A stretch of DNA of 64,000 nucleotides from Phoronis australis (Eukaryota > Animalia > Phoronida). Position 1 is the first letter of the stretch; the number at the start of each line of letters is the position of its first letter. Of this stretch, positions 2,042-62,784 are shown one piece after another. Below the pieces are notes generated by a model, which had not been told where the DNA came from, did not search any database, and saw only the letters and a list, made by a program, of their open reading frames with translations. Position numbers and translations under genes: made by a program. Where the stretch lies: contig NMRA01000149.1 of assembly GCA_002633005.1 (NCBI GenBank), positions 378,192-442,191 on the forward strand, in the 5' to 3' direction.

Positions 2042-2199
2042 GAGGAACATTAAAGATATATGGCGAATCTTTGTCTCCTGATGTGCCTTACAAGACCTTG
2101 TTGTTATCCACTGATGACACAGCAGCATTCATCGTCAAGGAAACACTGGACAAGTACAGCTTGGACAAAGAGGACCCCAAAGAATATTGTCTGGTGCAG
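2042..2199 (+). CDS. AFDN: Afadin exon, RA2 (Ras-association) domain
   Basis: ttacag acceptor; GGTLKIYGESLSPDVPYKTLLLSTDD...YCLVQ; cag|gttagt donor. Phase 1 to 0. Confidence 0.95.
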
Positions 2200-2774
2200 G
2201 TTAGTTTGGTTATCCGTATTCTGGTGAAAGGATAAATCATTGTCATGTATGGTCTGGCCAGTCATAGTTCATCAGTACCGAAGTTGAGATACCGGTCTCA
2301 TGGTGACTTCTCTTGAACAAATGCAGGACCAAGTATTGAAAGCTCCCATGTGGTTCTGGTTTATCTCATAGTTGTGATATTTTTTGCCACATTTGTGTGA
2401 TTGAAATTCTGGCAGTGTCATTCCTAAACGTAGACAGGATAGCTACAAACTCCAAATTGAATGATGTTGTTCAGATACTTCTGCTCTTTTTGTTTTCCGT
2501 ATGTGACCATTAACAAAATTTTGGAATAATTTCTGTAACAAGAGGATTTTACCAAGTTGACCAACTGAAGACTACCAATGAAGTTGACTGTACTTTACCC
2601 ACCGTGGTGTGAGGGTCGAAGACTACCAATCAAGTTGAATGTCCTTCACCCATCTTGATGTGAAGACCTTGTTTCGTTGTGCATGTCACTCAACTTGTGT
2701 TGATGTTCTTAGAAGTAACGGCAATATAACGTTTTGTTAGTTAGTTTAATTCCTTTTCCAATGTTACTCTTCAG

Positions 2775-2868
2775 GTTCAAGCGAATGACAATTATACAGG
2801 ACAGGGGAAAGAGGAGATTCTTAATGACATTGAATGTCCACTGGCCATTCTACAGACACCGTTCAAAG
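2775..2868 (+). CDS. AFDN: Afadin exon, RA2 C-terminal part
   Basis: cttcag|VQANDNYTGQGKEEILNDIECPLAILQTPFK g|gttagg. Phase 0 to 1. Confidence 0.9.
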
Positions 2869-3119
2869 GTTAGGCGTCTCTTGTAGGCCGTAGTCCTACT
2901 TCAACTGTGCCCTGTCAGTCTTAGGGCCATTTGACTAGATCCAGCATTGTGTGTCATGATAACGGTGATATCTTTCATGGCTGGGAATACAATATTGAAC
3001 CAATGTACTAGAGCACGTATCACAACATAAAGAGCATTTGTTGCCCGCAGACTTTTACATAACCTACCGTGTGCATTGAAAACATTTGTTGCCCAGCTTC
3101 ACGCTCATCTGGACTGGAA

Positions 3120-3458
3120 AACTACAGTCGTCCATATACTAACTACAATTGTCCATACACTAACTACAGTTGTTCATACACTAACTACAGTTGTTCATAT
3201 ACTAACTACAATTGTCCATACACTAACTACAATTGTTCATATACTAACTACAATTGTTCATACACTAACTACAGTTGTTCATACATTAACTACAGTTGTC
3301 CATACACTACCTACAGTTGTCCATACACTAACTACAGTTGTCCATACACTAACTACAGTTGTCCATACACTAACTACAGTTGTTCATACACTAACTACAG
3401 TTGTTCATATACTAACTACAATTGTCCATATACTAACTACAATTGTCCGTATACTACT
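3120..3458. repeat. 21-bp minisatellite (ACTAACTACAGTTGTTCATAC), about 16 copies
   Basis: Directly visible tandem array. It produces the spurious YTNYSCP/HTLTTVV ORFs. Confidence 0.95.
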
Positions 3459-3791
3459 GGGTATGGTGTTTCATGCTACTAAGGACTGGGGAAACCACCA
3501 TTGTCTAAACATTGCTGGTATATTGTTTCATGCTCGTCACGACTGGAAAACGGCTATTGTCTATACACTGTTGGGTTTTAGAATTTGACAGATTTTTTTG
3601 AGAAATGCAATCATTCTCTTTGAGAAATCCAATATCATTTTTTGAGAAATGCAAACTTAGATTCTCTTCCAAATAATAACTCAAATCGATATTTTTTGTA
3701 ATCAAATATCTCCCGTATGCTTTTTAAAATGCTGTTTTGAGGTTCATGCTATCTTAAATAATGTATTTTTATTTGCCTTCTTGAACTTTAG

Positions 3792-3935
3792 GTTCAGTCA
3801 CATTTCACATCCGTAAGCGGTCAGAGGCTCGCCGTAAGCGTCGTCCAAGGTCGGGTCTACACGAAGACACTGGCTTCCCCCATGAGGCTCAAATGGAGAG
3901 TGACAAACTACCCTTCCTATTAGAGCTCAATCCAG
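3792..3935 (+). CDS. AFDN: Afadin exon, end of RA2 and linker
   Basis: tttag|(G)SVTFHIRKRSEARRKRR...DKLPFLLELNP g|gtaact. Phase 1 to 1. Confidence 0.9.
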
Positions 3936-4351
3936 GTAACTGACTGGACATTTGTCTGCATCCTCAACATTTGGTCGATTTCTTTGGCATAGGGTTATAG
4001 CAATTTTTACACGTATAATAATAAAGAGTTTTCTTGAGATTTGGTGTTTACAAAGTTCTTTAGTAAAGAAAAACTTTGTAGTTGTTGTGCAGAAAGAAAT
4101 ATCCAATCACAAACCACAGTTAGGGATATGCAACAGCAAACGTGCATATTTTAGTTGACTTTTCAGAGACCCAAAATTGTGTTGGAAAAAAACATCATGT
4201 AGATTGTTTACTTAACACCCTCGAATGGAGATGCTTGTTTAAGACTACACAAAAGAGTGCAACAGGCTTCATATGGGAAATAACATGGTACTTATGGTGC
4301 ACCATTCATGTCTCGATTGAATTTGTAACCTCATATGTCATCTCACCACAG

Positions 4352-4644
4352 ATGGGTCAGAGTTGAAGCAAGGTAAGAGACACTTCCTGTCGTTGAACGT
4401 AACTGAGATTGGCAGTATTTCCACCAGTGGGCAGCACCTACAGCTGTTTGGGCCTACCATCCAACCACGTCATTGTGTCATCGCACATACGGAGGGCGTT
4501 GTCACAGTGACTCCATCTAGCCGTGACTCAGAGACGTATGTTGATGGCCAGCGTATCTCTGAAACAACCATCCTGCAACACGGCAAGATCGTACGGTTTG
4601 GACGACATCACGCCTTCCGCTTCTGTGACCCCACTGTGGAACAG
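4352..4644 (+). CDS. AFDN: Afadin exon, FHA domain
   Basis: cacag|(D)GSELKQGKRHFLSLNVTEIGS..LFGPTIQPRHCVIAH..RFGRHHAFRFCDPTVEQ|gttggt. Confidence 0.95.
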
Positions 4645-5244
4645 GTTGGTAGTTACATTTTGTAGTGGGAGTGGATTTTTTTGCGTCGAATCATTTTTCA
4701 AAAACACAATCTGGAATTTTTTTGTCTAAGAAGTTAATTTGGAGCCTATGACAAGGCTGGTTATTACATTACACATTATGTCCAATTGGTCTAGAATGAA
4801 ACAAAGTATTTTCTCCAAAAATGTCATTGTCCTAAATTTGTATTGTTACACGTGCATCCTGAGTAGCGGCTGTTACCAGTTATACATTGAGTACGAAAAC
4901 ATGCGTTTTTGGCATTTCACCCTCCACCTTGACAATGAATAGTTATGCTGTTTGAAGATCCAGAATTTAGATGCATGATTTTGAAGTAGACCGCAAAGAG
5001 TGTGAAACTTAAGTCTGGAATTGTATATGACCATATACTGCAGTAAATTATTGACGTGAAATAAACAGATATTGAATCACTGGTATCAAGTATAAAACCT
5101 GAAAACATTTTAGTTACAGTTGTCAAGGTATAATATGCAATGTAATACAGGTGTGTTAAGGATGACTTGTGACTTTCATTCGTGCTGTGTGAGACAGTGA
5201 AATGTGTTTTGTATTTTTACGTGTTTTCTCACCTGTGCTTTCAG

Positions 5245-5372
5245 AAGCAGCAGCGCAGTCCAGGTGAGGGGCCAGTGCCCTTGCGAGGTGGACCCCCAGG
5301 CTATGGGTATGAGCATGGCACGCCTGAGGGTCACAGACAGCCGGAACCGATGCCAGGTCAAGGTCATAAAAG
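5245..5372 (+). CDS. AFDN: Afadin linker exon (FHA to Dilute)
   Basis: tttcag|KQQRSPGEGPVPLRGG...GHK ag|gtatcg. Phase 0 to 2, required to join its neighbours. Tandem AG acceptors (cag aag cag cag). Confidence 0.85.
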
Positions 5373-5614
5373 GTATCGTTAAGTCACTATCAATACTGAA
5401 TTATCTGTTGTGTTTGGTTTTGGTATGGTAGGCTGTCTTCACACTGTTCTCTGTTTGGTTTGTTGCCCGACATCAATTATTATTCAGGTTGGCTGTCGTG
5501 TGCTTCCATGCAATTGTTCTACTTTTAATGATTAGGTCACTGGTCTTCAAGACTACCCTAGTTATTCTGATGTGCTCCCATTATACACTCAATACATACT
5601 CTTGTCTCCTGCAG

Positions 5615-5891
5615 ACCTGGTGACTACTCGCATACACGTGTTAAAGAGGAGCAGCTGCCTGCCTCGTTAGAGTTTCGTGACGAGGGTGAGGATGCCTTCC
5701 TAGCGGCGCTCATCACTGAAGTGAATGGTGCTGCGGTACACTTCAAGCTGAGCCCTACATACGTGCTCTACATGGCTGTGCGCTACCGTGTGACTCGCAG
5801 TGCGCGACCTGAGGTCACCATGTCTGAGCACATGCATCGACTCACCTCACTGGTCAACAAGATTGCTGGCATGGTTCAACAAGCGATACAT
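5615..5891 (+). CDS. AFDN: Afadin exon, pre-Dilute region
   Basis: ctgcag|(R)PGDYSH..LPASLEFRDEGEDAFL..HFKLSPTYVLYM..QAIH|gtaaga. Confidence 0.95.
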
Positions 5892-6324
5892 GTAAGACTG
5901 TTATTTGACTTCATTCCATAGTAACTCGGTGCTGTTGTACCAGCTCTATGAGCACAGTGGTGCTAAGGTTCTAATGTTAGCATTGCACTCTTCATAGTCT
6001 TGCTCATTGTTTTCCCAAGTTTCTGTTATTATACGGGACTCTGCTTTGTACTATTTTTTGTGGTGTTATTGATAAGAAATCATTTCATCTAGCTGCACTT
6101 TTGGAAATTTCCTGCGAGAACACAGTCAATTTGTGAATATCTTGTCATTTAATTGGTTGAAACAAGGCAATGCATTTATTTGGAATTTAGTTCATTGTTA
6201 AGCTTCTGATTGTATTACTATACGTGACTTCAGTCAACATTCAGACGTGCTAGTTGAGATGAACCTTGTGATTAAGTTGAAATTGACTTCAAAAATGGAT
6301 TGCTATGCCTTTCTTTCCATCTAG

Positions 6325-6559
6325 GAGAACCGGGACAATGCAGGTGCGCTTGCCTTCTGGATGGCTAATGCCTCAGAGTTACTTCACTTCTTCAAGATGG
6401 ACCGTGACGTGACCTCATTCAGCCTGGACTCTCAAGACATTTTAGCTGAGGCAGTACAGGCAGCCTTTCGCGACCTTGTGCGCTGCATGCAGGGAGACCT
6501 CTACAGAGCAATGCCTGCATTCTTCAGTGACCGTGGAGGCGATGAGGATGAGGATGGAG
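6325..6559 (+). CDS. AFDN: Afadin exon, Dilute region
   Basis: ctag|ENRDNAGALAFWMANASELLHFFKMDRD...DEDEDG g|gtgagt. Confidence 0.95.
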
Positions 6560-7673
6560 GTGAGTGCTTCCTAGGGACTGAAGAGGGCATCGTTGTGGGC
6601 TGTCTAAGGACTTAATAGTGGTTAAGTGGGTGGTTTTCTAGTCAAGTCTAGGCTAAAGTGCTCTGGTTTGAATGATGGTACTTGGACATGTTTCTGCTCT
6701 AATTTCAGTTATGAAAATTTTAAGCACATTGTGCATTTATTACATTTTAAAATGTTTAGGCCAAGCCTGTTGTGTCCATAGAATTGTGATTAAGGCATTC
6801 AAATACAATTAACTGACTTAAAGCACGCCTTTTCTTAGGTTTCATCATGTCTCATTCTTTCTTCATCCAAACCTACACTGGGTTGCTTGTTTTTACACTT
6901 TGCACGAAAGCAAAGCTTAGACTCTCTGTCTTTTTCTGTTCTAGACTTAAACTGTCATGCATGCCACTGCATGTTCTGTTCATAGTGTCTCTTTCATTTA
7001 ACCCCACTTTCACAGATATTACCAGGAAATAATACGTTGTAGTGATTAGTCTGGTCATGCAGCATTCAAAAGAAATTTTCTCGCCAAACTACTCTGGCGT
7101 CACATGCATCAAGTTTAAGTATATTTCTAGTTGCTACTTTGGCTAATTTCCCACAAATAGTTGATGTTGGAGTCGTTATAGTGCTCTGAAGTATTGCACC
7201 TGTATGACATCAGAGATAGTCTGAGGTTTTGTGTATTGCATGTTAATGAGTGAGTGAACTAACTTTGATCTTGTGTTTTTTGTTGTCCGCGTTAGGTTTT
7301 CACTGTCCTCCACTGATGAGGCTTGATAACATGAATGTCTCACGGTGGTAGATAGACCCCGTACTAATTTTCATCCCTGTCTGTTCTGAAACACCTCATC
7401 TTTATAGTTGTGTGTCAACTGAGTATTCAAACAAACTACTGCTCTTAAATCAAGCACTTAATTGTATGAATTGTCAAGACACTTTAACAGTCACGCGTTG
7501 AATTCAAGGTATCAATTTAAAATTGAAATTTTGAATTCTGACTGCTGGGTAATTCCCTATCAGCAATTTGCTGCGTGCAAGTCTCCCTGTAGTGAACTCT
7601 TAGTTCTATACTCTTAACTGACTGTCTGTTTCTCTTGCCTCTCATTAATCGCTTGTGTGCTTGCTTGTCGCAG

Positions 7674-7721
7674 ATGACAGTTCACTTGACAGTCGTGGCC
7701 AGCCTCGGGGACCGGTACTAG
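7674..7721 (+). CDS. AFDN: Afadin 48-nt small exon (symmetric phase 1)
   Basis: Long pyrimidine tract, tcgcag|(D)DSSLDSRGQPRGPVL g|gtacgc. Joins in frame to GDVIHTL. Confidence 0.75.
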   Translation: MTVHLTVVASLGDRY

Positions 7722-8868
7722 GTACGCTCATTTCCTTCCACACATTTTTCACCTAGTACTTCTGCTTACTATTGTGATTTACTCGCACAATGATGATTTC
7801 AAACTTCCATGTTTCATTTGCCATTTTAAAACTTTTTCTGTTTGATGTTTCTTTTGCTGCTCAATTGACTGCGTCCAGGTTGCCAGTCTTCTTCCCTCAC
7901 GAACCACACAAGTGTTCTTACTAACAACATTCTTTCCCCGCAAGCTTTATTACGTTTATCATGCCCTTAACTTATTTTCTTACATTTTCTCATGAATCAC
8001 AGATCATTTCTGATGTGCTTTTGGCCAGTTCTAGTGTACAGACAGTTTGATACTTTGTACCAGGCTTGTACCTTTTACCAGAGAGTGAAAAGGGATGCTG
8101 TTTATCAGGAAAACATTGTACTCATGAGAAAAGAATGCTGTTACTGAGAAGTCTTGTGTGGTTCATAAGAGCAGAAGAGTGATTTCCCTGTTGTATATTG
8201 ATAGTTAAGTTGACGTATTATTTCTTTTATAATATCACCATTGTTCTTAGATGTTTAGACTCAACTTGCAACCACCTTGTCAGCACAGTGCTCTGCATGT
8301 TTTTCCATGATTCTTTCCAGTGTCACTTTTGAATTTGCTTTACACTAGTAGTCAAAAAAAAATTTCCTGGCAATTATCGTTTTTTAGTTATAGCCAGTGA
8401 CAGTTGTGATGTCTCAAACTTTATTTCTCATTGATTGAAGAAGTTCCCCCTGTTGGAAATCATGCTGTACTGTGGTCATTCACATTTCATTCATGCATGT
8501 AAACATTGTTTGGGAAGGTGAAGTACTTGGTCATGTGTATACTGTGGTAAATGTTTGCAGTACTCCCATCTCCTGTAAATGGAAAGGAACTATCTTAGTA
8601 CACTTCTTCCTAATGATTTCACTGATTTCTCTTAGTTGAATTTCAGACAGTCTAGTCTCATGTTCAGAGATTCAGTTCTTTTCATAAGATTGTGCTATGA
8701 AGTTAAGTTGGTGTTTAGGTAATAACTATCACTGTCATTTTTGTTTGCAAAAGTTTGCTGAGTCTATACTGTCCACTCTAATTTTATTACCTCAAGGAGC
8801 CTTTTACGTGTGGTAGTTGGCTGCACCTTTTAACGTTGAACATGGACCTGTCTTGTCTGCCCCACCAG

Positions 8869-9134
8869 GTGACGTAATTCATACACTATCATCAGCTATG
8901 TCACTACTGCGCCGTTGCCGTGTGAACGCAGCCTTAACCATCCAGTTGTTCTCTCAACTCTTCCACTTCATCAACATGTGGCTGTTCAATCAGTTGGTGC
9001 TGGAGCCTGCCGCACAGCTGTGTACTCGTGACTGGGGCATGAGACTGAAGCGCCACCTGGGGAGAATCGAGGCATGGGCAGAGAAACAGGGACTGGAATT
9101 AGCAGCTGACTGTCACCTGTGTAGGATTATTCAG
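8869..9134 (+). CDS. AFDN: Afadin exon, Dilute domain core
   Basis: caccag|(G)DVIHTLSSAMSLLRRCRVNAALTIQLFSQLFHFINMWLFN...AEKQGLELAADCHLCRIIQ|gtaata. Confidence 0.97.
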
Positions 9135-10977: not shown

Positions 10978-11158
10978 GTGTCAGTAGCGGCCAACACAGC
11001 GGATGAGCTAACCCGTAGCGAAGGCCGTGATGTGCGTCTGGAGGAGGAGCCTGATCTCCAGCTTCCGTTCCTGTTGCCGGAGGATGGTTACTCCAGCGAC
11101 ATCGTCCGAGGACTCCCCAATGGTCTGCCAGACTTCCTTGAGCCTCTCAGTCAGACGG
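10978..11158 (+). CDS. AFDN: Afadin exon, post-Dilute conserved block
   Basis: cgccag|VSVAANTADELTRSEGRDVRLEEEPDLQLPFLLPEDGYSSD...LSQT g|gtacgt. Confidence 0.95.
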
Positions 11159-11889
11159 GTACGTTCACGAGCTGGCCTTGTATGGGTGTTTGGCTGTGTT
11201 CATTGCACAAGTCACTGCTTGGATTGAAACTGAATGTTAGGTTTGATGACTCTGTATTGTCTTCCTGTTAGAAATTTAACCTGTGCAGTACCAGCAGTAG
11301 GACTAGTAATCAATCCATTGAGTCCAAAACATTGAAAATATGTAGTTGGATTAGCAGTAAGATGTGATTCAGTAGCATTTTACATTCGTGAATACATGAC
11401 ATCATATGACCTCAAAGGGGTAAGGTATGACTGGTGTGCACCTTTTATTTGTTGCCTTTACCTCTATAATTATGCCCAAAATGGTGTAATTTGATCCTAA
11501 ATTGATGATAAGCATATTTGTTGACATTGGGCATCGTAATGTCACTGGTTTTATCCTAGAAACTCGGCTTGCATTTATACTGACTTATGGCTCTCCCAAT
11601 TCCTCGTCTTTCTGTTAAACATTCAGACTGGTTGCTATTAGTTACATCACAGCTTGCCACAGCTGTCTGCAGTGTTACTTGTCCTTTAATGTTGCGTATT
11701 CCCGTTTTCCAAAAATATGATTTAAATTTTCCAAACATGCAGCCATAGTATGTGTTGCTTGATGGAATGTTTGTGAGGAAATTTGTTGTCGCCAAATTTC
11801 TTAAAAGTCTGTTTTCAAGAACTACAAGATATTTCTGTGTCTTCTTCACTTGAGTTATAACAGTGTGAGAATGTGTCATCTTCTTATAG

Positions 11890-11975
11890 GCATATGTCGC
11901 ATGACGCTGCACCCAAAGGCTTCAGGTTTGTGGACCGTGTACATGGTGGGACCAGACGGAGTTGGCTCACCGGAG
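11890..11975 (+). CDS. AFDN: Afadin exon
   Basis: ttatag|(G)ICRMTLHPKASGLWTVYMVGPDGVGSPE|gtgtgt. Phase 1 to 0. Confidence 0.9.
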
Positions 11976-12135
11976 GTGTGTACATTCACGTGGGATGAGA
12001 CTAGTTTGATCGACTCCTTGTTTGGACATTATTACCTCTTCCGTTCTCCAGGATGTTGCAATTGTACCCTCTGATAATGTTTGTCTTGGTTGTCTGTGTA
12101 TGTCGTCTGCCTTGAGGTGGCGTTGTGGTAACATG

Positions 12136-12508
12136 ATTTCTAAAATCTTCTGGTCTATTTGGACCACACTTTAGCCTATTTACACTGGCGCCATGTTTCA
12201 CTTGGTCACTTCTCCGGCCATCTTCAGGTGTTAGAGTGCTTGTAGTTCAATCCCAGCGTGGGTCAAGAGAATGAAAGAAGTGCTCATCAATGACCACCAC
12301 GAGTGTAACGTACACCTGTGCTCATTCTTCTGAGAACGCTGTAACACCTGAAGATGGGCAGAGAAATGACTAACACCTGAAGGTGGGCAGAGAAGTGACC
12401 AGCAGAAACGCTGTAATACCTGAAGGTGGGCAGAGAAATGACCAACAGAAACTCTGTCCTATTGTAAAATGGCTAGTCAGTGTAAATAGACCAATAGATT
12501 TTAGAAAT
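12136..12508. mobile_element. Inverted-repeat element with internal tandem CCTGAAG(A/G)TGGGCAGAGAA units (MITE-like or Penelope-like end)
   Basis: atttctaaaatcttctggtctattt (12136-12160) matches the reverse complement of 12484-12508 (atttctaaaatctattggtctattt). Further inverted match between ~12203-12232 and ~12342-12400. Confidence 0.65.
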
Positions 12509-12813
12509 ATATGTCCGGATTTATGAATGTAGCTGTTTTGCTAAATTCTACCAAAAAGAAATGATCACTTGACCCAATTAATGACGCGGATTTTGAGTCT
12601 AAAACTGCAAGTTCTCTACTTCCAGAACATATATACTTTTACTGTTTTAAATTCTGTAGTTTTGTTGATATTTGACTTAATGCTGCACAAAGTTACTGAT
12701 AAGGTTAGTGGTAGATAACCTTAATTTTTAGTTTTATTGATTGCTTTGTTTGTCGATTTCTTCTCATGCATGCCCAGTGTCAATGTTACAGCTTTCTGTA
12801 TTTTCTGAGCCAG

Positions 12814-12866
12814 TTTTCTGGAGTCATTGATGACATCGATGACTCATTTCACACTCTCGGTCTTAA
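12814..12866 (+). CDS. AFDN: Candidate alternative small exon A (paired with 13515-13563)
   Basis: agccag|FSGVIDDIDDSFHTLGL aa|gtaggt. Phase 0 to 2, no homology support. Confidence 0.35.
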
Positions 12867-13514
12867 GTAGGTACTCCTGCTTTGTGGTTACAATAACCAT
12901 CAGTTAGTGTCTTGTACTGTTCGCAGGACTCTCCCATTATATATAATTAGTTTGTCAACTTTGCGAAAGTTCAAAACAAACACCCCCATTGACTTTTGGC
13001 ACACATTGGTTTACTATGCCCTCTGTGGGAATGGGAACACATGACACATATGTTGTTGTGCAGGTTTTTTGAACAGTTTTGTCTAAATGTATTGCATGTA
13101 TTGTCTATATTTGTAACATTTGTTTTGGTAACTATAGTAGGACTTGTTGAATTGGTTTACTCCTTTACATTTCAACTTCTTTCAAGTACAAGTCATAGGG
13201 TCAATGCTAATAGAATAAGCATTTCGTTACCTCACTTAAGACTTCCTGATATCAATAAGCCCAGCCAGTCACTCTTTATTTGCAATTCGTGCTCAAATTG
13301 TCTCAGCAAGCTGGAAAGTCACGCCGTGTATTGGCAATGAGCAACTGGAGATTCCTCTGCTGTGTATATTGCTTTGTTGTTGGTAATTATTCCACATTTC
13401 ACCAAACATTTTACCAGACCAGTGAAACTAACGAGGTCACTTAATATCAGTGGAAGCCTGTCACTTATGTAGATTTTCCCTCAAGTTTACTTGCCCAACT
13501 TGTCACGCAGCCAG

Positions 13515-13563
13515 GCCAGGCTTAGTCCCAAGCACCACCAATTCTGCAGTACATCTGGATCAA
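13515..13563 (+). CDS. AFDN: Candidate alternative small exon B
   Basis: cagccag|(K)PGLVPSTTNSAVHLDQ|gtgagc. Phase 2 to 0, restores the frame after exon A. Confidence 0.35.
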
Positions 13564-15662
13564 GTGAGCACGGAACTGCTTCGTACGTCAGCGCCACCTA
13601 AACTCATTTCAGTTCATTACCTGTAACTTCATCGCTTTGGTCTCACTAATCACTCAGTTCGCATTAAACGCTCTTAATTTCCTCGGTAAAAATTTGGAAA
13701 TATTCTCCATTGTACACATTCTTTGTCATTTCATGCTCGACTGAGAATTGAGAGACATGTGATTCAACCATTACAAGTGCATTGGACATATTGCATAAGC
13801 AGGAAGTGAAAGGCAGCTGTTTTAAGAGTCATTTTTGGTTTTCCTTGATAAATTTTCAATTAAATTACTCTGGGTTTCAACTAATTATGCACGCATCAAT
13901 CCAGGTGTCACATTCAGGGCCCAAGTCATTCCCTGCTGTCTTTGTTTACACGCACTTCAGACAGTGTTTGTAATTGGATGCATTTCCCGTTGTAACAAGT
14001 TAAACCATTATGTTCCTTTCTGACGGAGTTTTATTTAGTATGGCTGTAAAGTGTTGCATTGTGGGACTCGAGCTTCGTGTGCTTTTGAAGAGTATGAGAG
14101 TTCCACTTCACTGACCTCTAGTGGATGACAAGATCCGTTGGAGTAGGCTTGTTGGTGCCAAGAGTGCAGTGTTGCTTGTTAAAGTCACAGCTAAAGTGGT
14201 GCATAACTCGTGTGTGCAGCGAACATTTCCTAGGTTACAATAGGGATATGGATGCAGAATCCATAAAGGTTCCTGCTAATAGGGCTCTGAAGAAGGATGT
14301 CGTAGGGTCCATACTTGCCTGCTCTGCTTCGTTGCTACCTGTTAGGAGTGGTTTTTGAATTACGAAGTGTTGCGAGCTGCAGCCTCTGTAGTGACTCAAG
14401 GCAATGAAGTGGGTGTCACCCGTCCTTATTAACTGTCACTGAACCTTCCAGAGTCACCAAACAGCTTTGTCGTGAAATTATGTTGTTCGCGTTTTTGTGT
14501 TCACTGGCTCCAGCCATTTCCTGTTCACTGCAGGTTAAAGAGTGACTTTATCCCATTCAACTGAGTTCCAGTCTCTTCAAAGACAATTATCCGGTACGCC
14601 AATTGTTGGCAAACAGTATACAATCACCAGACGTCCACACTGAATCATTGCACTAGCAAAGATGGTGGAGAGTGATTCGGGCCATGAACGTCACTATTGG
14701 AATGAAACATGCCTAATTAATTAGATCCAAAGAGAATTTAATTAACATGAAAATTTATCTAAGGTAACCAGAAAATTGTAATTTAACTAAAATTGACACT
14801 AACACGGTTGCCTTCCCTTGAAGCTATAATGATGAAAATATATGACCATTCAGAGGCAAAAAGATAATTACTTCGAGGTTTGTACTTCAAGACTTTTATC
14901 ACTTTACTAAAGCTGCTGCCGTGTAATTTTGAAGCTCCTTTTTTACCTTCATTTGTAGACGAAAACGAAGCACGAGTTTCTGCAGTTTGATACTAGTATG
15001 GCATTTTGTCAGGTTTGTTTTTAACAAACTCTTCAGCTCAACATAATTGTGGCTTGTGCAAATCTAATCTTTCATACTTCTGTTGATTGTGTCCACTAGA
15101 GGTTCACTGTTTTGGGTTAGGGGTGTCAAATAGAGTTCTAATTTACTCACCCATTGTTCATGTAACAAAACAGTTACTACCCATTAAGAATTTTAGAATT
15201 AACATTGTTTGCCTTGAGCTGGTAATATCTGGGATAGTCATACTCTAGTACTTTGTGAGTAATATTGACTGACTGCACTTGATTTATTAGACTGTTCCAG
15301 CAACATTGATTTTTCACCTATCATGTAGAGATGGTTCATTGTTGATGTTGACATTTCCACACCTTAATTATGTGTAACTTGTCCTACACACTGGACTGTA
15401 TAGCAGTGCTGCTCATTAGCTTGAGTACATGAAACAGCTCTTGTGTGATGGCTTGTCAGAAAAACACATCTTTCTAGTTCTTGCATACAGTCTGTAATTT
15501 TCAACTGATTCCAAATGTTTGTTCATGGCTTGGCGAGCCTGTGGTTGTCGATGTTTGCAAGAAATTCTGTTGTCTTGGACAAGTAGTGTAGTTATTATTA
15601 CTGTCACAGGTTATGATGGTGGAATAAGTTTATTGGCTCGGTGAGCAGAGCGTCAAAGGTTT

Positions 15663-15880
15663 ATTACTTGGTGGGAAAGAAATTTCTTCATGTATGTTGC
15701 TTTGTCATAAATTTGTTTTTCTTTGTTTGTTTCTTGTTTGCACGCTACAGATCGCAATTCTTATTGGATTATTATGAAATTTAGACACAAGATGTGTATA
15801 ATGAATGGCTTGAAGCCTATTGTTTTTTATTGAAATCCAGTTCAAGATGGCGCTGTGGTGGCCCTTTTATCCTTTTTTCA
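15663..15880 (-). mobile_element. Diverged fragment of the Helentron/HINE-like family at 41.3-42.6 kb, opposite orientation
   Basis: Aligns by eye to the reverse complement of ~42380-42583 (attacttgg..., gcacg.tacag.tcgcaatt, gaagcctattgttttt, atggcg.ctgtgg.ggcc). Confidence 0.75.
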
Positions 15881-16605
15881 TTTGTGGAGCCATAGCTCCG
15901 TTGTTTCTGGTCGGATTTTTCTGATTTTGTGCCAATCTTTGACGCCCCTTGATGGATCTGAAATTTGGGGAAAATCCCCTCATTAAATTACTGGCCAATC
16001 ATAGCTTCAGATAGTTCATGACACGTAACACAGAAATTGAAAATGGTAAATAAGTTCATAATCTCTGCAACATGCAAAATAGCCTTGACTGCCTAAATCG
16101 ACCGTTGCCCTTTTCACAGATATTTTTAAAACTTTTTCTCTCGGTATTTTGATTTTGCTTTAAACAACAGATTTATTCTATCAACAATAATTTGCCAAGA
16201 AAAAAGAATCCAAAATGTGCAAAAATTTCATTTAAAACTGCTGATGTCCACTGTCTGCGTGTGGTCTGTATTAGAGTAGAAGAGCAAGTGTTACCCTGAA
16301 GTGATTCACCTGTTGGAGGTTTTGGGAGCTAAATATTTTTGGCAACCTCAGACACTGCCAGTTCAGAACAGAATTCCAGTTCAGAGACGGTATCAAATAG
16401 TTGTTTCATGTCATGACTGAGTTGGAGGGATAACATCCCCCCCACACACTTTGGGTGTGCTTAAGGGATGGTAACCATGGCAACAGCAAACGAAAAGAGG
16501 AAATGGCACTAGCGTTGCTAGAAGATGGTTGCAACTCCCACATCCTGACCTGGTGCAAGAAAGCCATGCTTAATTAGTTAAATTTATATCTCATTTTAAT
16601 GTGAT

Positions 16606-16773
16606 TAACTGGATGGTGACATGATGAGATGTTTAACTGGATGGTGACATGATGAGATGTTTAACTGGATGGTGACATGATGAGATGTTTAACTGGATGG
16701 TGACATGATGAGATGTTTAACTGGATGGTGACATGATGAGATGTTTAACTGGATGGTGACATGATGAGATGTT
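16606..16773. repeat. 28-bp minisatellite x6 (TAACTGGATGGTGACATGATGAGATGTT)
   Basis: Six identical tandem copies. Confidence 0.95.
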
Positions 16774-17263
16774 AGTGTGATTAATGTGGAATGAATGTAG
16801 CCTCTCTGGTTGTATATGACAGCTTGAGCTCAGCATATAGGAATATTTTTTATATTTCTTGACCAATAGATGAACAGTGAATAGTTGCCTATGTACTCCT
16901 TAAAGGACACACTGTTAAGTTGGAATCCATTCATTAATTGTTTATTTTTTTAAATGTGCAAAGCCTTGTGTTTGTGGGGATTTTTGTGTTGCTTTTTGAA
17001 GTGCTTATCTCAACTTATTAATCAGCCTGTATGAAGGGTAAATACTTGGAGTGTTCTCTGGTCCCGATGTCATTTTAGCTCAAGGAGTTTAATGAGTATG
17101 ACAAGTGGTAGTCAGGAGTTGACATATTGATCCGCCATGCAATATTGTGTTGAGCCGCAGAAGTGGTGAGTGGCTGAACGCAACACTAGTCTACCTGTGG
17201 CGGTACTGATTGGACTGTTGAACGGTCAGCTGGCACGGATATTATACGGGTTTGTTGTTCTTG

Positions 17264-17398
17264 ATGGGAATGGGTGTGCCTTCCAAGCTTCACATGCGTC
17301 GCCATCGCAAGGCCAATGGGGAGGGTCGCCAGCGCAAGACTCGCGTCACATTTTCTAGTACAATTCAGCGTTTTCCAGTAGACTATGTTATGCAATGT
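17264..17398 (+). CDS. AFDN: Candidate alternative first coding exon with RVxF (PP1-docking) motif
   Basis: ATG at 17264 with an in-frame TGA upstream at 17219. Encodes MGMGVPSKLHMRRHRKANGEGRQRKTRVTFSSTIQRFPVDYVMQC, then a GTAAGA donor in phase 0 matching the PDZ exon at 18999. GC/CpG-richer than the flanking intron. Confidence 0.6.
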
Positions 17399-18998
17399 GT
17401 AAGAATCCTAGGAGGAATGTTGTGATGTCATTCCTGGGGAAATGTATTTCTGTTCAGAATGCTTTATTGTTTATTATTTTTCAGGTACTCTTTCTGGCAG
17501 ACATTGTTGTCATTGTTTAAAAGTGTTTGTCACTGTACTGCTGGTGTGTTCTGTTCCTTTCGTCTCGCATGTTTATGTAGCGATAAATGTAGGGGTAAAC
17601 TTTTGTCAAGAGTGTCGCGAAATTCACTGACTTGACTGACTTGATACTTCTTATTGGGTTATGGTTTTCAAAAACTTCCTATATTGGTGCAAATTCTCGA
17701 AATTTATCAAATAATGTTAGTAGTAACTGTATCGTACACCTTGCTGGCATCAAAGAAAATTTTCTCTGTGATTTTTTTATGTTGAGGATTTTGGTGTATT
17801 GTGTTCCAAAACTGAAGAATTTTACCTTTGGACCACTTCAGTTTATTGATTTTATTGGGAAATTTAATTAATTTCACTGTGTTTGTTAATTGACTTGAAC
17901 TAGCTCCGCTTTCACTGTATTTCATAGCTGCAATGGCAAAAATGGTAAATTGCACCAGGAAGCCATCAATTTGTCTCAAGGTTTAGCTCTGCTGAAACTA
18001 ATGGGCAGTGGTTGATTCTGTGATAGCAAATATGCTGAGCCTGTGTTATTAATAGCGACAGAACCTGTGAGGTCACAATAGAGAGAGGACCCTTCCCCGC
18101 CCGAGGGGAAAGGTGCTCGTACCTTCTAAAAGAGAATGTTGTGGTTGAGAGGAAAGTTCCCCCTTGCATCTGTATCGTATGACAATCTTCATCAAACTCT
18201 TATAGTTAATAGATGTGTTGCCACTAAGGTGATATTGACTGTAGATTTCATTTTTCTGTGTAATGTATGTTTTTTCTCCAGTGGCTTTGTTGTCCGTAAA
18301 CTGTTGGCTCCTTCCCAAATCTCCACGAGCTTAAACCTGTATTTGTTTACGTGTATCATAATTGAAGTGTATCACTACTCAGCTTTTAATATTGCAATTG
18401 ACCTTTAAAGGTGAATATTTGTTTCTGCACAAACTAGAAGAGAGATTATTGTATCATTACGTTAATGTGTCCATTACCTTGAAGAACTTGCGGGGCATGT
18501 ATCAATTGAACCATTGGGCTGGCCAGCCCTTTCAAAATATGACGGCTTCAGCTCACACGCTCCCTGTCAATTCTGACTGGTTGTTTGGTCGCCATGTTGA
18601 GGAATGTTCAAAACGTATTTCTGGATTTCACGTCTTTAACTGTGAGTGGAAGGGAAGTTCCATTTCAAGAGTTCATAAGCATAATCTCCCCCACCACCGT
18701 TTTCCCAGAGTTGAACATTCCTGTTGCTAAGTGTCCTCCTACACATCATGTATGTATTGTATAATATGCCTTATGCTTTACAGTTACACATGTTTTTGTT
18801 CACACAATGCCGTCATGCTCATGCCGTCTCAAACTGGTTGTCTATTTCACAAATGCTTACATGATTCGTTGCGTGTATTTGTGTCTGCATTTTGTGATAG
18901 TAATAATTATGTATTGCTCAGAGCTGACGAATTGTGCAGTTTCTTGAAGGAACATCCGTTTCCCACTGTTTTCAGATCGTCTTGCTGTTTCTTTTCAG

Positions 18999-19145
18999 GG
19001 CTCACACACCAGTATACCACTAGATCGTACTGGTGGTCCACCCAGCGATGCTCCACCCCCGGGCCTTCCCGCAGAGCCTGAAGTGATGACAGTCAGTTTC
19101 AGTAAAGTGCAAGGCAGTATGGGATTGAGCATCGTGGCTGCCAAG
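18999..19145 (+). CDS. AFDN: Afadin exon, PDZ strands bA-bB
   Basis: tttcag|GSHTSIPLDR...EPEVMTVSFSKVQGSMGLSIVAAK|gtaagt. Confidence 0.95.
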
Positions 19146-19172
19146 GTAAGTCAACACAGTTGGACCAGCAGT

Positions 19173-19661
19173 TAGAGACCATGGTTTTCCGTGATAACGA
19201 AAAACAGGCAGAATTCATGGAATCTCATTTCTTTTGCGGATTTATAGATTTCAAAGGTAATTTACATAATTTAGTAGCAGATACTGTAATTACAAAATTT
19301 TTGGTTTATTATCAAAAATTTATGAATATAATCCATCAAAATTCAACGATTCTGGCCACAAATTGATCGACAATCGTTTTGCAGAGGATATGTTTGAGTA
19401 GTTGTTCAATCTCTATGAAGGTGGCGCTGTTCTGTTTCCGGTTTTGAGAAACATTACACGTCGTGCAGCAAATTATTGTTGGAACAGATCTGCAGCACAA
19501 TTTAGGGGAAAAGTAAGATAATTCCCAGGTCTTTTCATGCTATTTATCACTGTAATATGGTAAAACAGAATTTTGACAATTAATAAAGTGGAAAAAATCT
19601 GATTTTTTTGTTTGCTTAGACGGTTTTCTCTGTTTCTGAAAATGGAAAACCATGGTCTCTA
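19173..19661. mobile_element. MITE with ~20-bp TIRs (TAGAGACCATGGTTTTCC), possibly hAT-derived
   Basis: tagagaccatggttttccgt at 19173 and atggaaaaccatggtctcta ending at 19661. Flanks gaccagcagt / caacagcagt form only a degenerate TSD. Confidence 0.75.
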
Positions 19662-22459
19662 CAACAGCAGTGATGAGACATACGAGCAGTGCAATATATA
19701 TCGTAGGCAGCGTTAGCAAAAATATCTGTTCAGATTGATTTGAGCAGCTACAGCCCTGTCTAATATCAGTGGCTATAGCTTCTGAAAATTCAAGAGTTCT
19801 ATTTTTCATATCGTTTCTCGTTCCAAAATTGTATTTCATGTTTTAAGGACCTAAATACTGTGCAGATTTACGGTTGTTAATGCCATTTCTGCGAGTGTAA
19901 AGTAACCCTGAAGTTTTTATGTCATGTGGAAATCTGTTTAATATTCTCATTGAGTACTAGCACACGTTAGAAAAGATTTTATTTCAAGTTATATTGAGTG
20001 CAGATTGGGCGAGTCGTAAATGGTCAACATTAAGCAAGGTAAAAAAATGAAGCCACCAAAATAACATCTGTGAACTCCATTCCAACTGCAGTGTAACCAT
20101 AGAAATAGGAGAGTTAACTTTTTCATGACTGGTTTGTTGTCGTGAAAGTTAGTTTAGGTATTCTGCAAGTAAGTAATTGGATGTCTACTAATTAAACTGA
20201 AAGCAAAGTACATGGTTTGATTGTCCTGCAGGGAGTTGCGTATGATTGATTATAGTTTTTGTTGGCGAGCAATTTGTGGGGTGCTGTCATCTCCCAGGTG
20301 TCGTCTCCTGTCAGTCTAGTGTTACTAAAGTGTCTTGCTTATTTGCTTATTTTGACAACTGCAACTATCAATTCATCAGGAGCATTGCTGATTATTCCTG
20401 TGTAATATATTAGTGTACAACAGTACACAGTTTTAAACTAGGAACACACATCATTCATGAAGCTTAACAACAGAGACCTCATTGAGTGAGTGAGTGAGTT
20501 GAGTCTTTACGATTACTGAACAATCTAAATTCAACTCAGTTTTGAGTGGAAAATACCACCTTAACAGTATCATTGGAAACACGGGTTGGTTTGTTAGTTC
20601 ATTGAATATACATCAAAAGTAATAAAATTGCATTGAAGGGTATAACACACCCTTAGAAATCGCTTCACATTACGTCCATGTTTTCATTATTCCTTTTCAT
20701 ACATCCACTTCCAGTGCGGAGGTCACAGAAGCGGCAGTTACGCTAGAAGTGTGTAGCACCATTTTTAATGCTGCTTGTTTCATTCATTAAAAAGTAAAAG
20801 ACTGTTTCATGACCAGATCACATTTTATGTACAAAAATAATAATTTTTGTTGTGTTGAGTTTTAAGAAGTTCTACTGTCGTGAAGATATGGACATTTATG
20901 GCACCTGGTGTAGCGATTGTACATTTAACTTTTGTGTTAGAATAACTGTCAACCACCTTTCAAAAGAAAACTAATTTAATTAAATGGAAACAAGTGAGTT
21001 AGTGAAAGGGAAAACTGTCTCCTAACATTTATTCATTATACTGTAATGTAGTGTTGGTACAAGACAGGGTTTTTGCGTCATCTGATGACATTGCGTACGC
21101 TTCCTTGGATGACGTTTGGGTAAAACGTACAAAATGAAAGGGAAAGGAACAAAAGCAATCACTTTAATTTCTGGGATATGTTCCAGTGTTTTCCATTGAT
21201 AAAAGTACTTTCTGATTTGCATCATTTTTGTCTGGTGTTCTATTTTGGTGTATTGATTTCTGTACCTTTTTCACTAGCATTGGGCCCCAAAAAAATTTTA
21301 TGCAAAATTTTTTATAAATGGGTTTACAGAAAACCAGTTTTAGTAAGTGTAGGAGAAGCACGTGTAGTATACACACTGAAGTAATATTTTGAAATCTAAT
21401 TATGTGACATATACACAACCAAGTGTGATATGAAACTGTTGTACATTGTGCACTGAGCTGCTATGGCTAGAAAGGCTTGGGAAAAGTTGGTGTCAGTTTT
21501 AGTGACTCCTTCACTGAATGTGTATGCAAATAAGTCACCCGACCTGTGACCACCAACTGGTTTCACCCTTCTGTGCTGAGAAACATTAAGCATAGTACGT
21601 GCGTCAGTAATGTTAAGTAGTGAGAAAATAACCACAATATAGAAAGTGAGTTAAAAGCTGGCTGTTGGCGTGTTAGCTTGCAATTTATCTGAGTCTTCAC
21701 AGATTACACATGACACAGTAACTTCAGTTTGATGAACTGTTGATATTTTTACTTACTGCTGCGTTATATTGCACCTTGTTGCTCAGTCATATCATTGTTA
21801 AGCTTTGTGAAATTATGTGATTTTAGAATACTCCAGTGCTTGGCTGGGATTACATCAAGCTTGATGCTCTATACACCCTATTCACTCTCTCCATTTTAAA
21901 AGTGAGCCTCTTTTTAGGTTTTAACAACAAAGCATTTTGCGCTTAAATACAATGCTAAGCGCAATTTATTTTGCATACCTCGTTATATTCATGTCTCAAA
22001 TGTATTGTTTTTTAAACCTAATAAGAGGCTCACTTCTAACATGGCGATTGTGTGAATCAAGCTTATTCACTAGATACTTAATGTTAAAGGTGTTTTTTTC
22101 AATAAGTGCACCGTATTTGTTGTTATTCAGCATATATTTTAATTAAAATGTGCAACCTTTACGCTGATTAAGCACAACTTAGGGCCTGTGATCGCCAAAG
22201 TTTGCTCCATACCCAAGTTGAAAATGAACCAGTCACATTGCATGAAAGTGTTAAAGTTCACTTGAAGCAGTTGTTCAATTTTGGAGTCAAGTCTGGAGTA
22301 AAGATTGTTGGTCAGAAGCCTTGATACACTGTAGGTAGTGACACAAGTTGTGTAATCACGTGCTGGTGTCCAGTGAGTAACTTATGTGCAATACAGGCCT
22401 GGCATCTTCTCTGTTTAAAATATGTATTACCTACCACGTCTCTTACTTGTTCTACTGTA

Positions 22460-22487
22460 TGTGTGCGCGTGTGTGTGTGTGTGTGTG
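22460..22487. repeat. (GT)n microsatellite
   Basis: gtgtgcgcgtgtgtgtgtgtgtgtgtg. Confidence 0.9.
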
Positions 22488-23266
22488 AGGGAGTGTGTGA
22501 ATTCAGTTCATCGAGTCCATACTTCTTCATCATCAACCTACAGAATCCTCTGTACTACTGTTTGCAGATACTGGTGGATAGTTTGCAATCCTGTCACAAG
22601 GTGTCACTAGTTGATTATAAGCCTTGAAGGTTTTGGCAATATCAAATAGCCAGAGTTATTCCTTGATTTTATCTGGTGTTTGCAATGATTTCCTTGTTTT
22701 GATAAGCAAGGGTTTCTTTTTCGCTGATTAAATGCTAGCTATTTCAGGTAATGTTTCTGATATAAGTGCCATAGAGACTTTAGTTAATGGTTTATTTCAT
22801 GTTTGAGTTCACTTTCACCATGGCAACTGATTGATTGAAGTAAATTTGTTTTTACTATCGTTGCTGTCAGTTGTTGCAGAAACTGTTTTCCTCTGGCATT
22901 ATGGTTAGATCACTCATGCACAATGCCTTTAATGTTATAGGAGGATATTGTAAGTCCCAGCTGTTTGATTGTTCCTTGATCAGAAGCTTTTCACTTAAAT
23001 TGGTCCTAATTAATAGATAAACAATTCATATTTCACCCAGAGATACTGTAAGTTAAAGATGCTAAATGAATTGATTTCTAAGGGCCTGTTTTCTATGGAG
23101 TACAGTACTAATGAGTAATTATCTGAAGTGCTTAATGGAGCTCTGCTGCTTATGTGGTTCACATGTATTGTTAGGATAGACATCCTATCTGCTGCCTGGT
23201 ACAAATTCACACCTGCAAGCCTAATTCTGAAGCAAGCACTGCGTTTGAGACTCGACTGTTTAAAAA

Positions 23267-23336
23267 TTGGCCAATCACTTGGCACACGTCACGTGACATG
23301 ATTGGTCAATCACTTAGCACACGTCACGTGACATGA
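23267..23336. promoter_or_regulatory. 35-bp direct repeat x2, each with a CCAAT-like box and the palindrome GTCACGTGAC (E-box/CLEAR)
   Basis: ttggccaatcacttggcacacGTCACGTGACatga / ttggtcaatcacttagcacacGTCACGTGACatga. Function is inferred only. Confidence 0.4.
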
Positions 23337-26300
23337 TAGGTTAAATTTGGAGTCACTTCTCCAGAAATGGTTGCTCATGGTAGGACCTTAATCGGACACT
23401 AGATGTCTTCTGTAACTCAGTCCTATGTGCTGCTTGTTGAATACCCATCATCAAATAAATAATAAATGTGGCCATTACCCCCCCCGCTAAGGTACCAGAC
23501 GATGAAGTTCATTCGTACTCTCAAACGTATAATGAGTACTGGGTTAACTGAAAATTGTTCTCCTGTCGTACGAATGTTTATCAAAATGATCAGTGTCATT
23601 CTTCATGCTATCTTTTATTTATTTACGTGTGTCTATTGAGAGCACGTCGGTTATGCTGCAGTAACAAAGAACACGTTTCATATGATCGTATATCATTGCC
23701 GCGACCTTTACCGATAACTTCGGCAATGTTTCGCTCTGACCTTTCCCACTACGTCGAAGTTTCGGTGAGTACCAAAGCTTTGCTTTTAAATCCTACTAGT
23801 TTCAGAGAAGTTTCGCTTGCAGGTTAACTACCGAAGTTAACCTTTCCCACTTACCGAAACTTCGGTAAAAGCGACTTTAGCTAGAGGAAAGCATGTATTG
23901 TTGTCACTTATGGTTTCATTCATGCTCTATGATTAAATGTTAACAAACATTATGTATGGGAGGAGTTCAATGGCGTGATCTGACATTAGCATTTGGTGTA
24001 GGAATGTTGAGGGCATTGAATCTAATTCTAGACTGTCTCGTCATCAGTGAAGAATTTTACCAATTCACGAAATGTCAGTTAGAATTCAAATTGTTGCTCA
24101 TGACAACTGACACTGTTTAAAGCTGTATATTATCAAATCCAATCATTGTTCCTTTGCATACATGACATTTGTGATTAGTTTATGTTATCAATCTATAGAA
24201 AATGAAAGTATGAAAATTGTTAGTGCTGCTTGTTGATATCTCTCTCTTCAGTTTGTACAATCATGAGATCCGTTGGAATTGTAGAGAAGATGTCATTATC
24301 ATCTTGGTTAGATTTATCCAGGTGGTTTGGATTAATTACTTATCACAAAATCTTACCAGTTTTGGACAAAAATAATTGACAAATTGATCTTTTCTATTTT
24401 CTCAAGGCTTATTAAATTGTGAATGTCCATAACTACTTGTCTGATGACTTACTCTTGCTGTTGTTCCCACAATCAATGGTATAAGGACAAAGTGGTGAAG
24501 TGTTTCTCATACTTGCCACCAGGGGTCACCAGTAACATTCCTTCATTGTGTTTGTTTATGGTTCAGTTTATTTGTCCAACAGTCTGCTCATATCTCACAG
24601 GGTTCATTCAAAGACATTGTGTCTTTGTCTGTACACATGACACCATCTCCCCCAATTCAGTGTTTACTGAGCCAAACAATGTGGTTTGGTTTACAACTGT
24701 TAAACCCTGGCTTCCGGAAATTTCAAAAAGATTCCAGTCTGAGTCACAAGTGGAATGCACTCTGTCTAGTGATTCACCACATTGTGTATTATGGTTTTTT
24801 AATGGGTCATGCTATACACACTTGACACTGGTTGGATAAATGCATTAGGATTATAATTAAATTTCATTTGCCAACCAACGTGGTCACTCACCGCTTTGGA
24901 TCATTTGAATAACTGATTAACTGTTTAGTGAATTCAATCAGAGTTTACCTTTAACTAGTTTCCGTTTCCACTGGAGGGATATCTGTGAAAGACTTTGGAG
25001 TCTGTGGACAAGTGTTGATTTTCTCGAGATTCGTGGTAGATTTAATGTTGTAACATTAGGTTTTGTGGACAACTTCATTTTCATTGTTTGGGATTGAATT
25101 CCCAGAGCACACGCAAGTTGTATCTTGTGTCTGGATTATAATCGCAACGGTGTCCGTGTTGGAGTTAGCCATACAAGGAAGGGGTGAATCAGCATGTCAG
25201 CAACATTGCCACGGAGTAGGAAACAACTGGTATTCAAGCCTAAATATGAGGCCCCAAACTACTACAATAGCCCCGGATCGTATACGTTGAAACCAGCATA
25301 TAAAAAATCAGTAGGTATATTTTGTATATGATAGGTTTATCATCAGTGGTTGTGGTGAAGGTTCAACTTAAATGGGCCCTACTTGATCTTGCAAGATTGA
25401 CAACAGATCATACGCCCATTGGACTAATCTAGTGATCCTACTGGCCCTCGAAAATGACAGAAATTTTATAATGTAATGATTGAGACGGAAAGAAATTTGG
25501 TTTCTAGGAAATTACTCGCACTACTGACTAATGGTGCTGTGGAAACTTCCTATATTCTTGCTAAATATCTTAACCCATCATTCCTGAGTACAAAATTTAG
25601 AAATCAAATTGTTAGTGTGTGGTTGAATGGTGCAACCCGGGGGAAGGGGGTGTCACTCATCGACAAGGTGACCTGCTCAGTTAAACAAAAAATTGTGGTT
25701 AGGTTAGGTAATATTTTTTCATTGAGTTTTGCTTGACCCGTGCAGAGTCCCCCATTAATTTCCATTTTCCCCTGCAAAGTCACATTGGAGTGGCCAGAGC
25801 TTTCTACCTACCTGCAATGGGTATTGCTATTGGTTCTCATTGTGTGAAGTCTAATAATTAGTCCGAAAACAATCTTAAACATTCGGGAAATCACAAAATT
25901 GAACCTTGGTTCAATTGCTGCGAAATCTGCACAGGAATGGTCGAATTGAATCAAGTTCCTGAAGCGCGGCGCGCTCTTATGACTTGAGTTGTATATTGTG
26001 TTGTTGATGTAAAACACCTGTTCTGTACAATGCTGAGATTAAAGATAGCAAACCAAGCAAAATGGGATGGATCGGAGATGAATCGACCAATTGGGGTGGG
26101 GCAGGAAAATTCACCTGCAAAACGTGACACCAGCAGGAGGTAATCTCTCAACATTCTTGGGTATGCAGATGCTATACTTATGTCTGCTAGTAAGTAGTGT
26201 CCCCCCTTACAGGGGGGAGGTGCGGTAGATGTATTGCTATGCTGCAGTTTCCAAGCTTGAAATCAACAGGTTCTAGAAGAAGAGTTGTTGTTTCATTTGA

Positions 26301-39482: not shown

Positions 39483-39548
39483 GGCGAGCATCAGAAGGAT
39501 CGTGGTATTTATGTCAAATCTGTTGTACCAGGGGGAGCTGCTGCTTTA
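39483..39548 (+). CDS. AFDN: Afadin exon, PDZ bC-aA
   Basis: ttccag|GEHQKDRGIYVKSVVPGGAAAL|gtaagt. Confidence 0.95.
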
Positions 39549-42682: not shown

Positions 42683-42756
42683 GATGGCCGGTTACAGGCT
42701 GGTGATCAACTGTTGGAGGTCGATGGTAAAAACCTGGTGGGCTTGACGCAAGAGAA
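42683..42756 (+). CDS. AFDN: Afadin exon, PDZ
   Basis: ttgcag|DGRLQAGDQLLEVDGKNLVGLTQE aa|gtgagt. Confidence 0.96.
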
Positions 42757-62058: not shown

Positions 62059-62784
62059 GAACGTCAACAGTTGCGTGAGATGGAGGCTGTGCGCGATGCT
62101 GAGGAACGCGCCATCCGTGAAGATATGCGTCGCAAGGAGGAGCAGTCTCGGCAGCTGTATCAGTATCACACGTATCAAAATATTGACAACAAGGGAAGCA
62201 TAGCTCCACCCCCTCCTGAACGCAAATCTTCATATGACCTTGTCAATCAACATGGCTATCGTGCTGGTCCAACATCCCCGTCTTCATCGACCCTTCCAAG
62301 ACCAGATCCATCAAAAAAGAGTGTATCGTTCAATGCCGCTGTAGATCCAGACTCTGCTGTGTACAACAATGTACCCCCCACTGGCCAACAACCAGGTCAA
62401 CCGCAGCCGTATAATTACATGGCCACCAATAACAACAACACAGACTCGCGCTATGAGTTTAAAGGTCAGTCAGCCCCTCCTCCAGGGCCGCAGACAGCTC
62501 CCTCTAAGGACAGGTTTGAGTCTCCAAGCTCCCAGCAGGTCAATGTCCAGTACACAACTTCATCAACGCCTGGGGTGATTGGTGCTCAGGAGATTTATCG
62601 CGACCCGCGGATGCGTATTGAGGCTCGACGGAGGTCAGAGAACAAACCAGAGCAGGTTGAGAAAATGTCATTCAAGGACAAAATGAAATTGTTTGCACAG
62701 GAGGCAGGTGAGGGTACTCCTAAGGAAAGACCAAAAAGTTCAAGTCTACAGCGAGCAATCGAGTACTCACTAAATGGTCAGTAA
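62059..62784 (+). CDS. AFDN: Afadin terminal coding exon (C-terminal/F-actin-binding region)
   Basis: ttatag|ERQQLREME...APPPPERKSSY...TPGVIGAQEIYRDPR...EKMSFKDKMKLF...SLNGQ-TAA. Confidence 0.95.
   Translation, partial: ERQQLREMEAVRDAEERAIREDMRRKEEQSRQLYQYHTYQNIDNKGSIAPPPPERKSSYDLVNQHGYRAGPTSPSSSTLPRPDPSKKSVSFNAAVDPDSAVYNNVPPTGQQPGQPQPYNYMATNNNNTDSRYEFKGQSAPPPGPQTAPSKDRFESPSSQQVNVQYTTSSTPGVIGAQEIYRDPRMRIEARRRSENKPEQVEKMSFKDKMKLFAQEAGEGTPKERPKSSSLQRAIEYSLNGQ

Follow-up and report, generated by a model that had tools for sequence, protein, structure and literature searches.

The afadin gene and a frame preceding its PDZ domain

The window analyzed herein, a stretch of 64,000 nucleotides from Phoronis australis, contains most of the afadin gene on the plus strand, with RA, FHA, DIL, and PDZ domains arranged in that order and followed by a long disordered tail; the first RA domain of afadin lies before the window. 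RA (E 7e-12), FHA (2e-12), and DIL (5e-18) passed the Pfam cut-offs, and the afadins of Mytilus, Capitella, and amphioxus can be mapped exon by exon along the window. The upstream exons encoding RA, FHA, and DIL, which would be absent from the short form considered below, were placed at 2042..9134 (+) by Pfam and homology. Splice joints were sought in three stranded raw-read runs with the same species label (X1-X3), of which about 18-19% of the reads were examined. The canonical exon at 11890..11975 (+), which ends in phase 0, is connected upstream by the joint 11158-11890 (8 and 9 reads) and downstream to the first PDZ exon by the joint 11975-18999 (3, 9, and 2 reads in X1, X2, and X3, respectively; 14 in total).

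Four exons between 18999 and 43658 together encode the afadin PDZ domain. The first of these (18999..19145, +), identified by RNA joints and homology, is in phase 0 at both ends; it is weak alone as a query against the PDB, where all five matches were afadin PDZ chains (best E 0.012). The other three (39483-39548, 42683-42756, and 43537-43658, +) were placed by homology, not by reads.

Several other open frames were observed in this gene. Inside an intron splitting the PDZ domain is a 547-codon open reading frame (ORF; 28554-30194, +). Its acceptor (28596) and donor (30165) are both in phase 0, and it contains a strong-context ATG at 28602 and KHVVF at 29952. In X1 the sense RNA depth over this ORF is about 5 and in X2 it is 2, values that exceed those of most intron bins; no splice joint was listed for it in X1-X3, and it had no Pfam match. 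It could serve as a cassette of 523 codons within the PDZ domain, as a further first exon, or as a last one. The segment at 24744-25407 (+), with a sense RNA depth of 3.75 in X1 and no listed splice joint, may be a repeat or an unannotated exon. Just after the PDZ domain lies a 1,210-codon open frame (46004-49633, +) to which none of the three tested afadins matched; it is reminiscent of the long alternative exon in fly cno-RD/RI (PMC10399776). Coding-like segments at 5242-5364 and 56006-56131 (+) resemble further afadin exons, and a near-identical intron block with the same translations is duplicated at about 57390-57783 and 58021-58408.

The candidate alternative first coding exon (17264..17398, +) sits in the afadin intron 5' of the first PDZ exon. 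It is an ATG-led, stop-bounded frame of 45 codons, the translation of which includes RKTRVTFSSTIQRFPVDY and carries RKTRVTF-SST-IQRF. RVxF, in a loose and a strict form, is the pattern of a PP1 docking motif; RVTF (17342..17353, +), with RQRKT directly before it, matches both forms. An in-frame TGA (17219..17221, +) lies 5' of the first ATG, and ATG codons occur at 17264, 17270 (with a purine at -3 and a G at +4), and 17294. The putative donor, GTAAGA (17399..17404, +; context TGT/GTAAGA), is in phase 0 and weak, and the frame remains open past it up to a stop at 17423-17425. The short ORF, its upstream stop, ATG, motif, and phase-0 donor are all present as an earlier note on this DNA had claimed. 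Its claim of a phase fit also held, the acceptor at 18999 being real, in phase 0, and joined to 11975 by RNA reads. Since the canonical exon likewise ends in phase 0, its replacement by the candidate would involve no frame shift. If spliced in this way, the Phe of RVTF would be residue 30 and EPEV, which opens the PDZ domain, would begin at residue 71, a distance of 41 residues that agrees with the roughly 42 proposed earlier. The sequence observation is confirmed, and the use of 17264-17398 as an exon remains putative.

The frame has the layout of an alternative first exon: an ATG after an in-frame stop, a donor in phase with the next exon, and no in-phase acceptor ahead. An in-frame internal cassette exon was considered and rejected, since none of the seven CAG/TAG sites in 17000-17300 is an in-phase acceptor preceding the ATG. 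The ORF lies in a GC- and CpG-rich patch (17100..17400; GC 0.49-0.51, CpG observed/expected 0.70-0.96), which is a possible promoter or first-exon signature; the corresponding CpG ratio is 0.53 for the whole window and 0-0.18 for 16500-17099 just upstream. The patch is not unique in the window, as about 5% of 135-nt windows, exons included, contain as many CpG dinucleotides. About 500 bases upstream of the candidate, at 16605-16773, a 28-base unit occurs in six exact copies.

Coding statistics, RNA reads, and searches for relatives

One alternative, somewhat improbable, is that the ORF arose by chance within the intron: a CpG-rich patch, whether regulatory or a decayed insertion, would have yielded Arg codons, an RVxF, and an in-phase GT in a frame that is never spliced. 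Under a codon model for which 19 of the window's exons served as the training set, the candidate received +9.9 bits, or 0.22 per codon, with the 19 real exons ranging from -0.03 to 0.85 per codon. The score is frame-specific, the remaining five frames giving -17 to +3.4. Among the eight ATG-to-GT(A/G)AG phase-0 frames in 53 kb of plus-strand intron, the candidate had the top codon score and was alone in carrying a strict RVxF. Stop-free 45-codon intron stretches scored as high in 0.8% of 374 cases on the plus strand and 0.3% of 349 on the minus strand, and 0/829 stop-free dinucleotide shuffles of the ORF reached its score. When 5,687 copies of the 7-kb intron were shuffled locally, with local composition kept, a frame of that score was paired with a GT(A/G)AG donor on eight occasions and, when any GT(A/G) was accepted as the donor, on 90. 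Coding score, donor, phase, and RVxF came together in 1/5,687 shuffled introns, which speaks against chance, in odds to be read with the post hoc choice of the RVxF feature in mind. A chance origin is also disfavored by the phase bias of the CpG dinucleotides, seven of eight of which fall at codon positions 1-2, by the lack of Rfam matches in 11900-31000, and by the lack of a second copy of the exon within the window.

A chance origin draws support from the composition of the score. Without its seven CGY Arg codons, the ORF scores -3.3, and low-complexity intron DNA can match it: four plus-strand intron segments and one low-complexity minus-strand segment (45856) had best-segment scores above the candidate, two of the plus-strand four resembling unmasked afadin exons and two being of low complexity (41319 and 41550). 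Loose RVxF matches are common as well, with 47 others in the three plus-strand frames of the window, and 8% of simulated introns gave one in an ATG-to-GT(A/G)AG frame. The donor at 17399 scores -2.25, lower than 22/22 real donors and equaled or exceeded by 19% of 3,937 intronic GTs; its GTAAGA core is also found in the donor at 5892, which was placed by homology. The coding-like signal is located in the basic stretch 5' of the motif (17273-17347); it does not extend to the donor, beyond which the score is negative. These coding statistics are moderate, not strong, evidence for coding. Elsewhere in the gene, another ATG-to-donor phase-0 frame, of 41 codons and with a codon score of 4.8, was seen at 10637-10759 (+) ahead of the phase-0 exon at 10978.

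The RNA reads also lean toward chance. Reads from 17398 to 18999, by which the earlier note had suggested that its idea be checked, did not appear: none crossed the 17398 donor in the portion of X1-X3 examined, versus 14 on the canonical joint. The 95% upper bound on the share of the short form among splices into the PDZ exon is about 19% in these samples of unspecified tissue. The region 16829-17728 received 2, 4, and 2 reads in X1, X2, and X3, respectively, and since none of the eight is partially aligned, none crosses the donor; no pile of read starts was listed there at this shallow depth. In X3, a single read pair of sense orientation falls entirely within 17219-17398 and ends before the donor. 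X1 and X2, the runs richest in afadin, had no reads on the ORF, and X3 has little afadin, for which reason the X3 pair is suggestive. However, comparable pairs occur in plain intron nearby in X1 and X2, and that of X2, at 17489-17668, indicates that the X3 pair may be pre-mRNA. No contig of X4, a fourth run with the same species label, aligned on the ORF, which does not imply absence of use. A tissue- or stage-restricted isoform is likely compatible with reads from samples of unspecified tissue.

The same reads bear on another, very unlikely possibility, namely that the frame encodes a different product: an unspliced peptide of 53 residues ending at the 17423 stop, or a protein spliced to 28596 or 39483 and thus devoid of a whole PDZ domain. 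The frame is indeed open to 17422, both of these acceptors are in phase 0, and the single read pair ends short of the donor. On the contrary, the coding score does not continue up to the donor, and X1-X3 showed no listed joint between 17398 and 28596 (39483 lies outside the stretch covered).

Searches for relatives likewise furnished nothing in favor of the exon. The 45-residue peptide had no matches at E 0.001 among 1.84 billion representatives, and a search against longer proteins gave two candidates, none of which scored. No homologue of the candidate exon was found in 174 afadin-family proteins, and no RVxF occurred in the 110 residues before the PDZ domain in any of 92 afadins with a PDZ start; both sets consist of proteins only, mostly from fish with few molluscs and with no intron of a close relative, and so constitute a weak test. 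The first PDZ exon as a query gave no matches. The last PDZ exon matched 2,282 proteins, the best 120 of which, mostly from fish, were afadins where named or else unnamed PDZ proteins; no short mollusc isoform with its own N-terminus was present among these best 120 and 54 additional cluster members. Incidental matches of the peptide were discarded: a single PDB match to ribosomal bL32 (E 0.51) and three loci in GC-rich, gene-dense contigs sharing only RRHRKANGE were judged to be chance, and a match to DUF5466 was below the cut-off.

Weighing all of these, we consider that 17264-17398 probably does represent an alternative first coding exon in the afadin gene. Should it be unused, it would amount to an ordinary ORF within an intron, and the better lead would be the conserved C-terminal RVxF described below.

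Two putative PP1 docks in one gene

RVTF of the candidate exon is predicted to dock PP1. With basic residues ahead, it closely resembles the bound RVxF of RRP1B, which is KVTF (PMC9813921); that of spinophilin is KIHF. IQRF (17363..17374, +) is a possible PhiPhi[xF] element, a class of element that can hardly be called from sequence alone (PMC9813921). It begins four residues after the Phe of RVTF, versus five for PhiPhi in Phactr1 (PMC7599070) and seven in RRP1B (PMC9813921). Phactr1 further carries an Arg motif at 14 residues, and a Trp motif at 20 residues, beyond the Phe (PMC7599070). Across the candidate exon and the first PDZ exon, Arg occurs only at +6 and +25, leaving no Arg motif at the Phactr1 spacing, and there is no Trp.

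These departures lend some weight to an unlikely alternative, that the first exon is real but that its basic tip serves another role, such as membrane or nuclear targeting or a kinase site, with RVTF not holding PP1 in cells. The position of the coding-like signal, in the basic stretch before the motif, is in keeping with such a role, and afadin may already dock PP1 elsewhere, through KKSVSF. Nonetheless, the closeness of RVTF and its basic flank to the bound motif of RRP1B argues for docking, and an RVxF alone suffices for micromolar binding in Haspin.

KKSVSF (62314..62331, +), a second RVxF, lies in the ordinary last exon and is common to the Mytilus and Capitella afadins, a sharing that by itself suggests a mollusc or another lophotrochozoan as the source. 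A PPxR-(x)-SSY element precedes it, an arrangement likewise seen in both of those genera. The KKSVSF element was found in 8/105 proteins over 800 residues long, all from Mytilus or Capitella, and was absent from the aligned tails of amphioxus, tunicate, fish, and lizard afadins. By this pattern of conservation, KKSVSF is likely an undescribed putative PP1 dock of lophotrochozoan afadins. Preservation within a disordered tail makes a better case for this motif than exists for the candidate exon. PP1 docking may therefore not be special to the short form, and the idea that the candidate exon newly provides afadin with a PP1 site is weakened.

Unbroken eukaryote-type PP1 frames are present on short contigs of bacterial genome records (L014:1231-2142, +; L013:313-1083, -) and are likely contamination. 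PP1-like phosphatases with 48-53% identity to the eukaryotic PP1 are encoded on six viral contigs (L004-L009), five of them labelled as giant-virus MAGs. L012, which is assigned to a Chloroflexi MAG, encodes almost the same protein as L008.

A putative short afadin compared with known isoforms and PP1 regulators

Afadin is known to act as a junction scaffold under the control of Rap1 and to be a PP1 substrate, with Phactr1/PP1 acting on pS1275 (PMC7599070); PPP1CB appears in afadin proximity lists (PMC11810119), and the RA domains are critical in fly work (PMC8590279). Under the interpretation that we tentatively favor, at a little short of even confidence, 17264-17398 is a tissue- or stage-restricted first exon that is spliced to the first PDZ exon and carries a working PP1 dock. 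Coding-like statistics, the phase match, and the precedent of internal starts speak for the earlier note's version of this interpretation; the absence of junction reads and of detected conservation speaks against it. A promoter near the CpG-rich patch would drive a short afadin by splicing 17398 to 18999, with the loss of RA, FHA, and DIL and hence of Rap1 control. RVTF would occupy the RVxF groove of PP1, with IQRF as a strand beside it, and PP1 would dephosphorylate proteins held by the PDZ domain some 40 residues on, as neurabin does. PP1 binding is blocked when x in RV(S/T)F is phosphorylated (PMC9813921), and phosphorylation of the Thr of RVTF might then release the enzyme. If this is true, an afadin form without RA would place PP1 beside the PDZ domain; it would be a subunit that targets the phosphatase and would copy the neurabin design by convergence. 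A broader proposal, possible though doubtful, is that a promoter switch trades the Rap1-sensing head for a PP1 dock before the PDZ domain, recreating the design of neurabin/spinophilin in a scaffold not related to them, and that, with KKSVSF, mollusc and annelid afadins form an unrecognised class of PP1-targeting subunits in which the short form has two docks.

The earlier note knew of no comparable afadin isoform, a claim that stands in part: full-text searches of literature outside subscription journals, mostly at the level of result listings, showed no RVxF in any described isoform of afadin or Canoe, but internal-start short afadins are annotated in fly and, by inference, in worm. Fly cno-RF resembles the candidate in having a predicted internal start with its own unique first exon and in its late detection, only after 20 h; according to the same source, modENCODE or RAMPAGE data do not support that start (PMC8590279). 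For C. elegans afd-1, one sentence makes exon 15, at the PDZ domain, the most 5' of the exons that every isoform shares, which implies short forms; no link to PP1 is stated in the section concerned (bioRxiv 10.1101/2023.07.28.551013). The s-afadin isoform and fly cno-RD/RI/RH are likewise afadin isoforms that swap disordered parts, but theirs is the C-terminal region, and the RA domains are kept (PMC10399776).

Among PP1 regulators, RVTF...IQRF fits the looser RVxF-PhiPhi[xF] class of RRP1B and KNL1 better than it fits the neurabin string (PMC9813921), although those proteins are not junction scaffolds and the PhiPhi call here is drawn from the peptide sequence. Neurabin and spinophilin (PPP1R9A/B) bind PP1 by an RVxF-PhiPhi-R-W string (PMC12185105, PMC7599070), and the substrate choice of PP1-neurabin is directed by the adjoining PDZ domain (PMC12185105). 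The candidate, if spliced, would be similar to them in joining an RVxF and a possible hydrophobic strand to a PDZ domain close behind that could pick substrates. Unlike them, it lacks an Arg at the corresponding spacing and a Trp, its PDZ domain is that of afadin, as in all five PDB matches, and its motif would come from an optional exon. The description of the short form as neurabin/spinophilin-like thus holds for an RVxF beside a PDZ domain as a way of working and fails for the Arg and Trp motifs. The likeness would be functional only: a short afadin could work like neurabin without being a member of that family.
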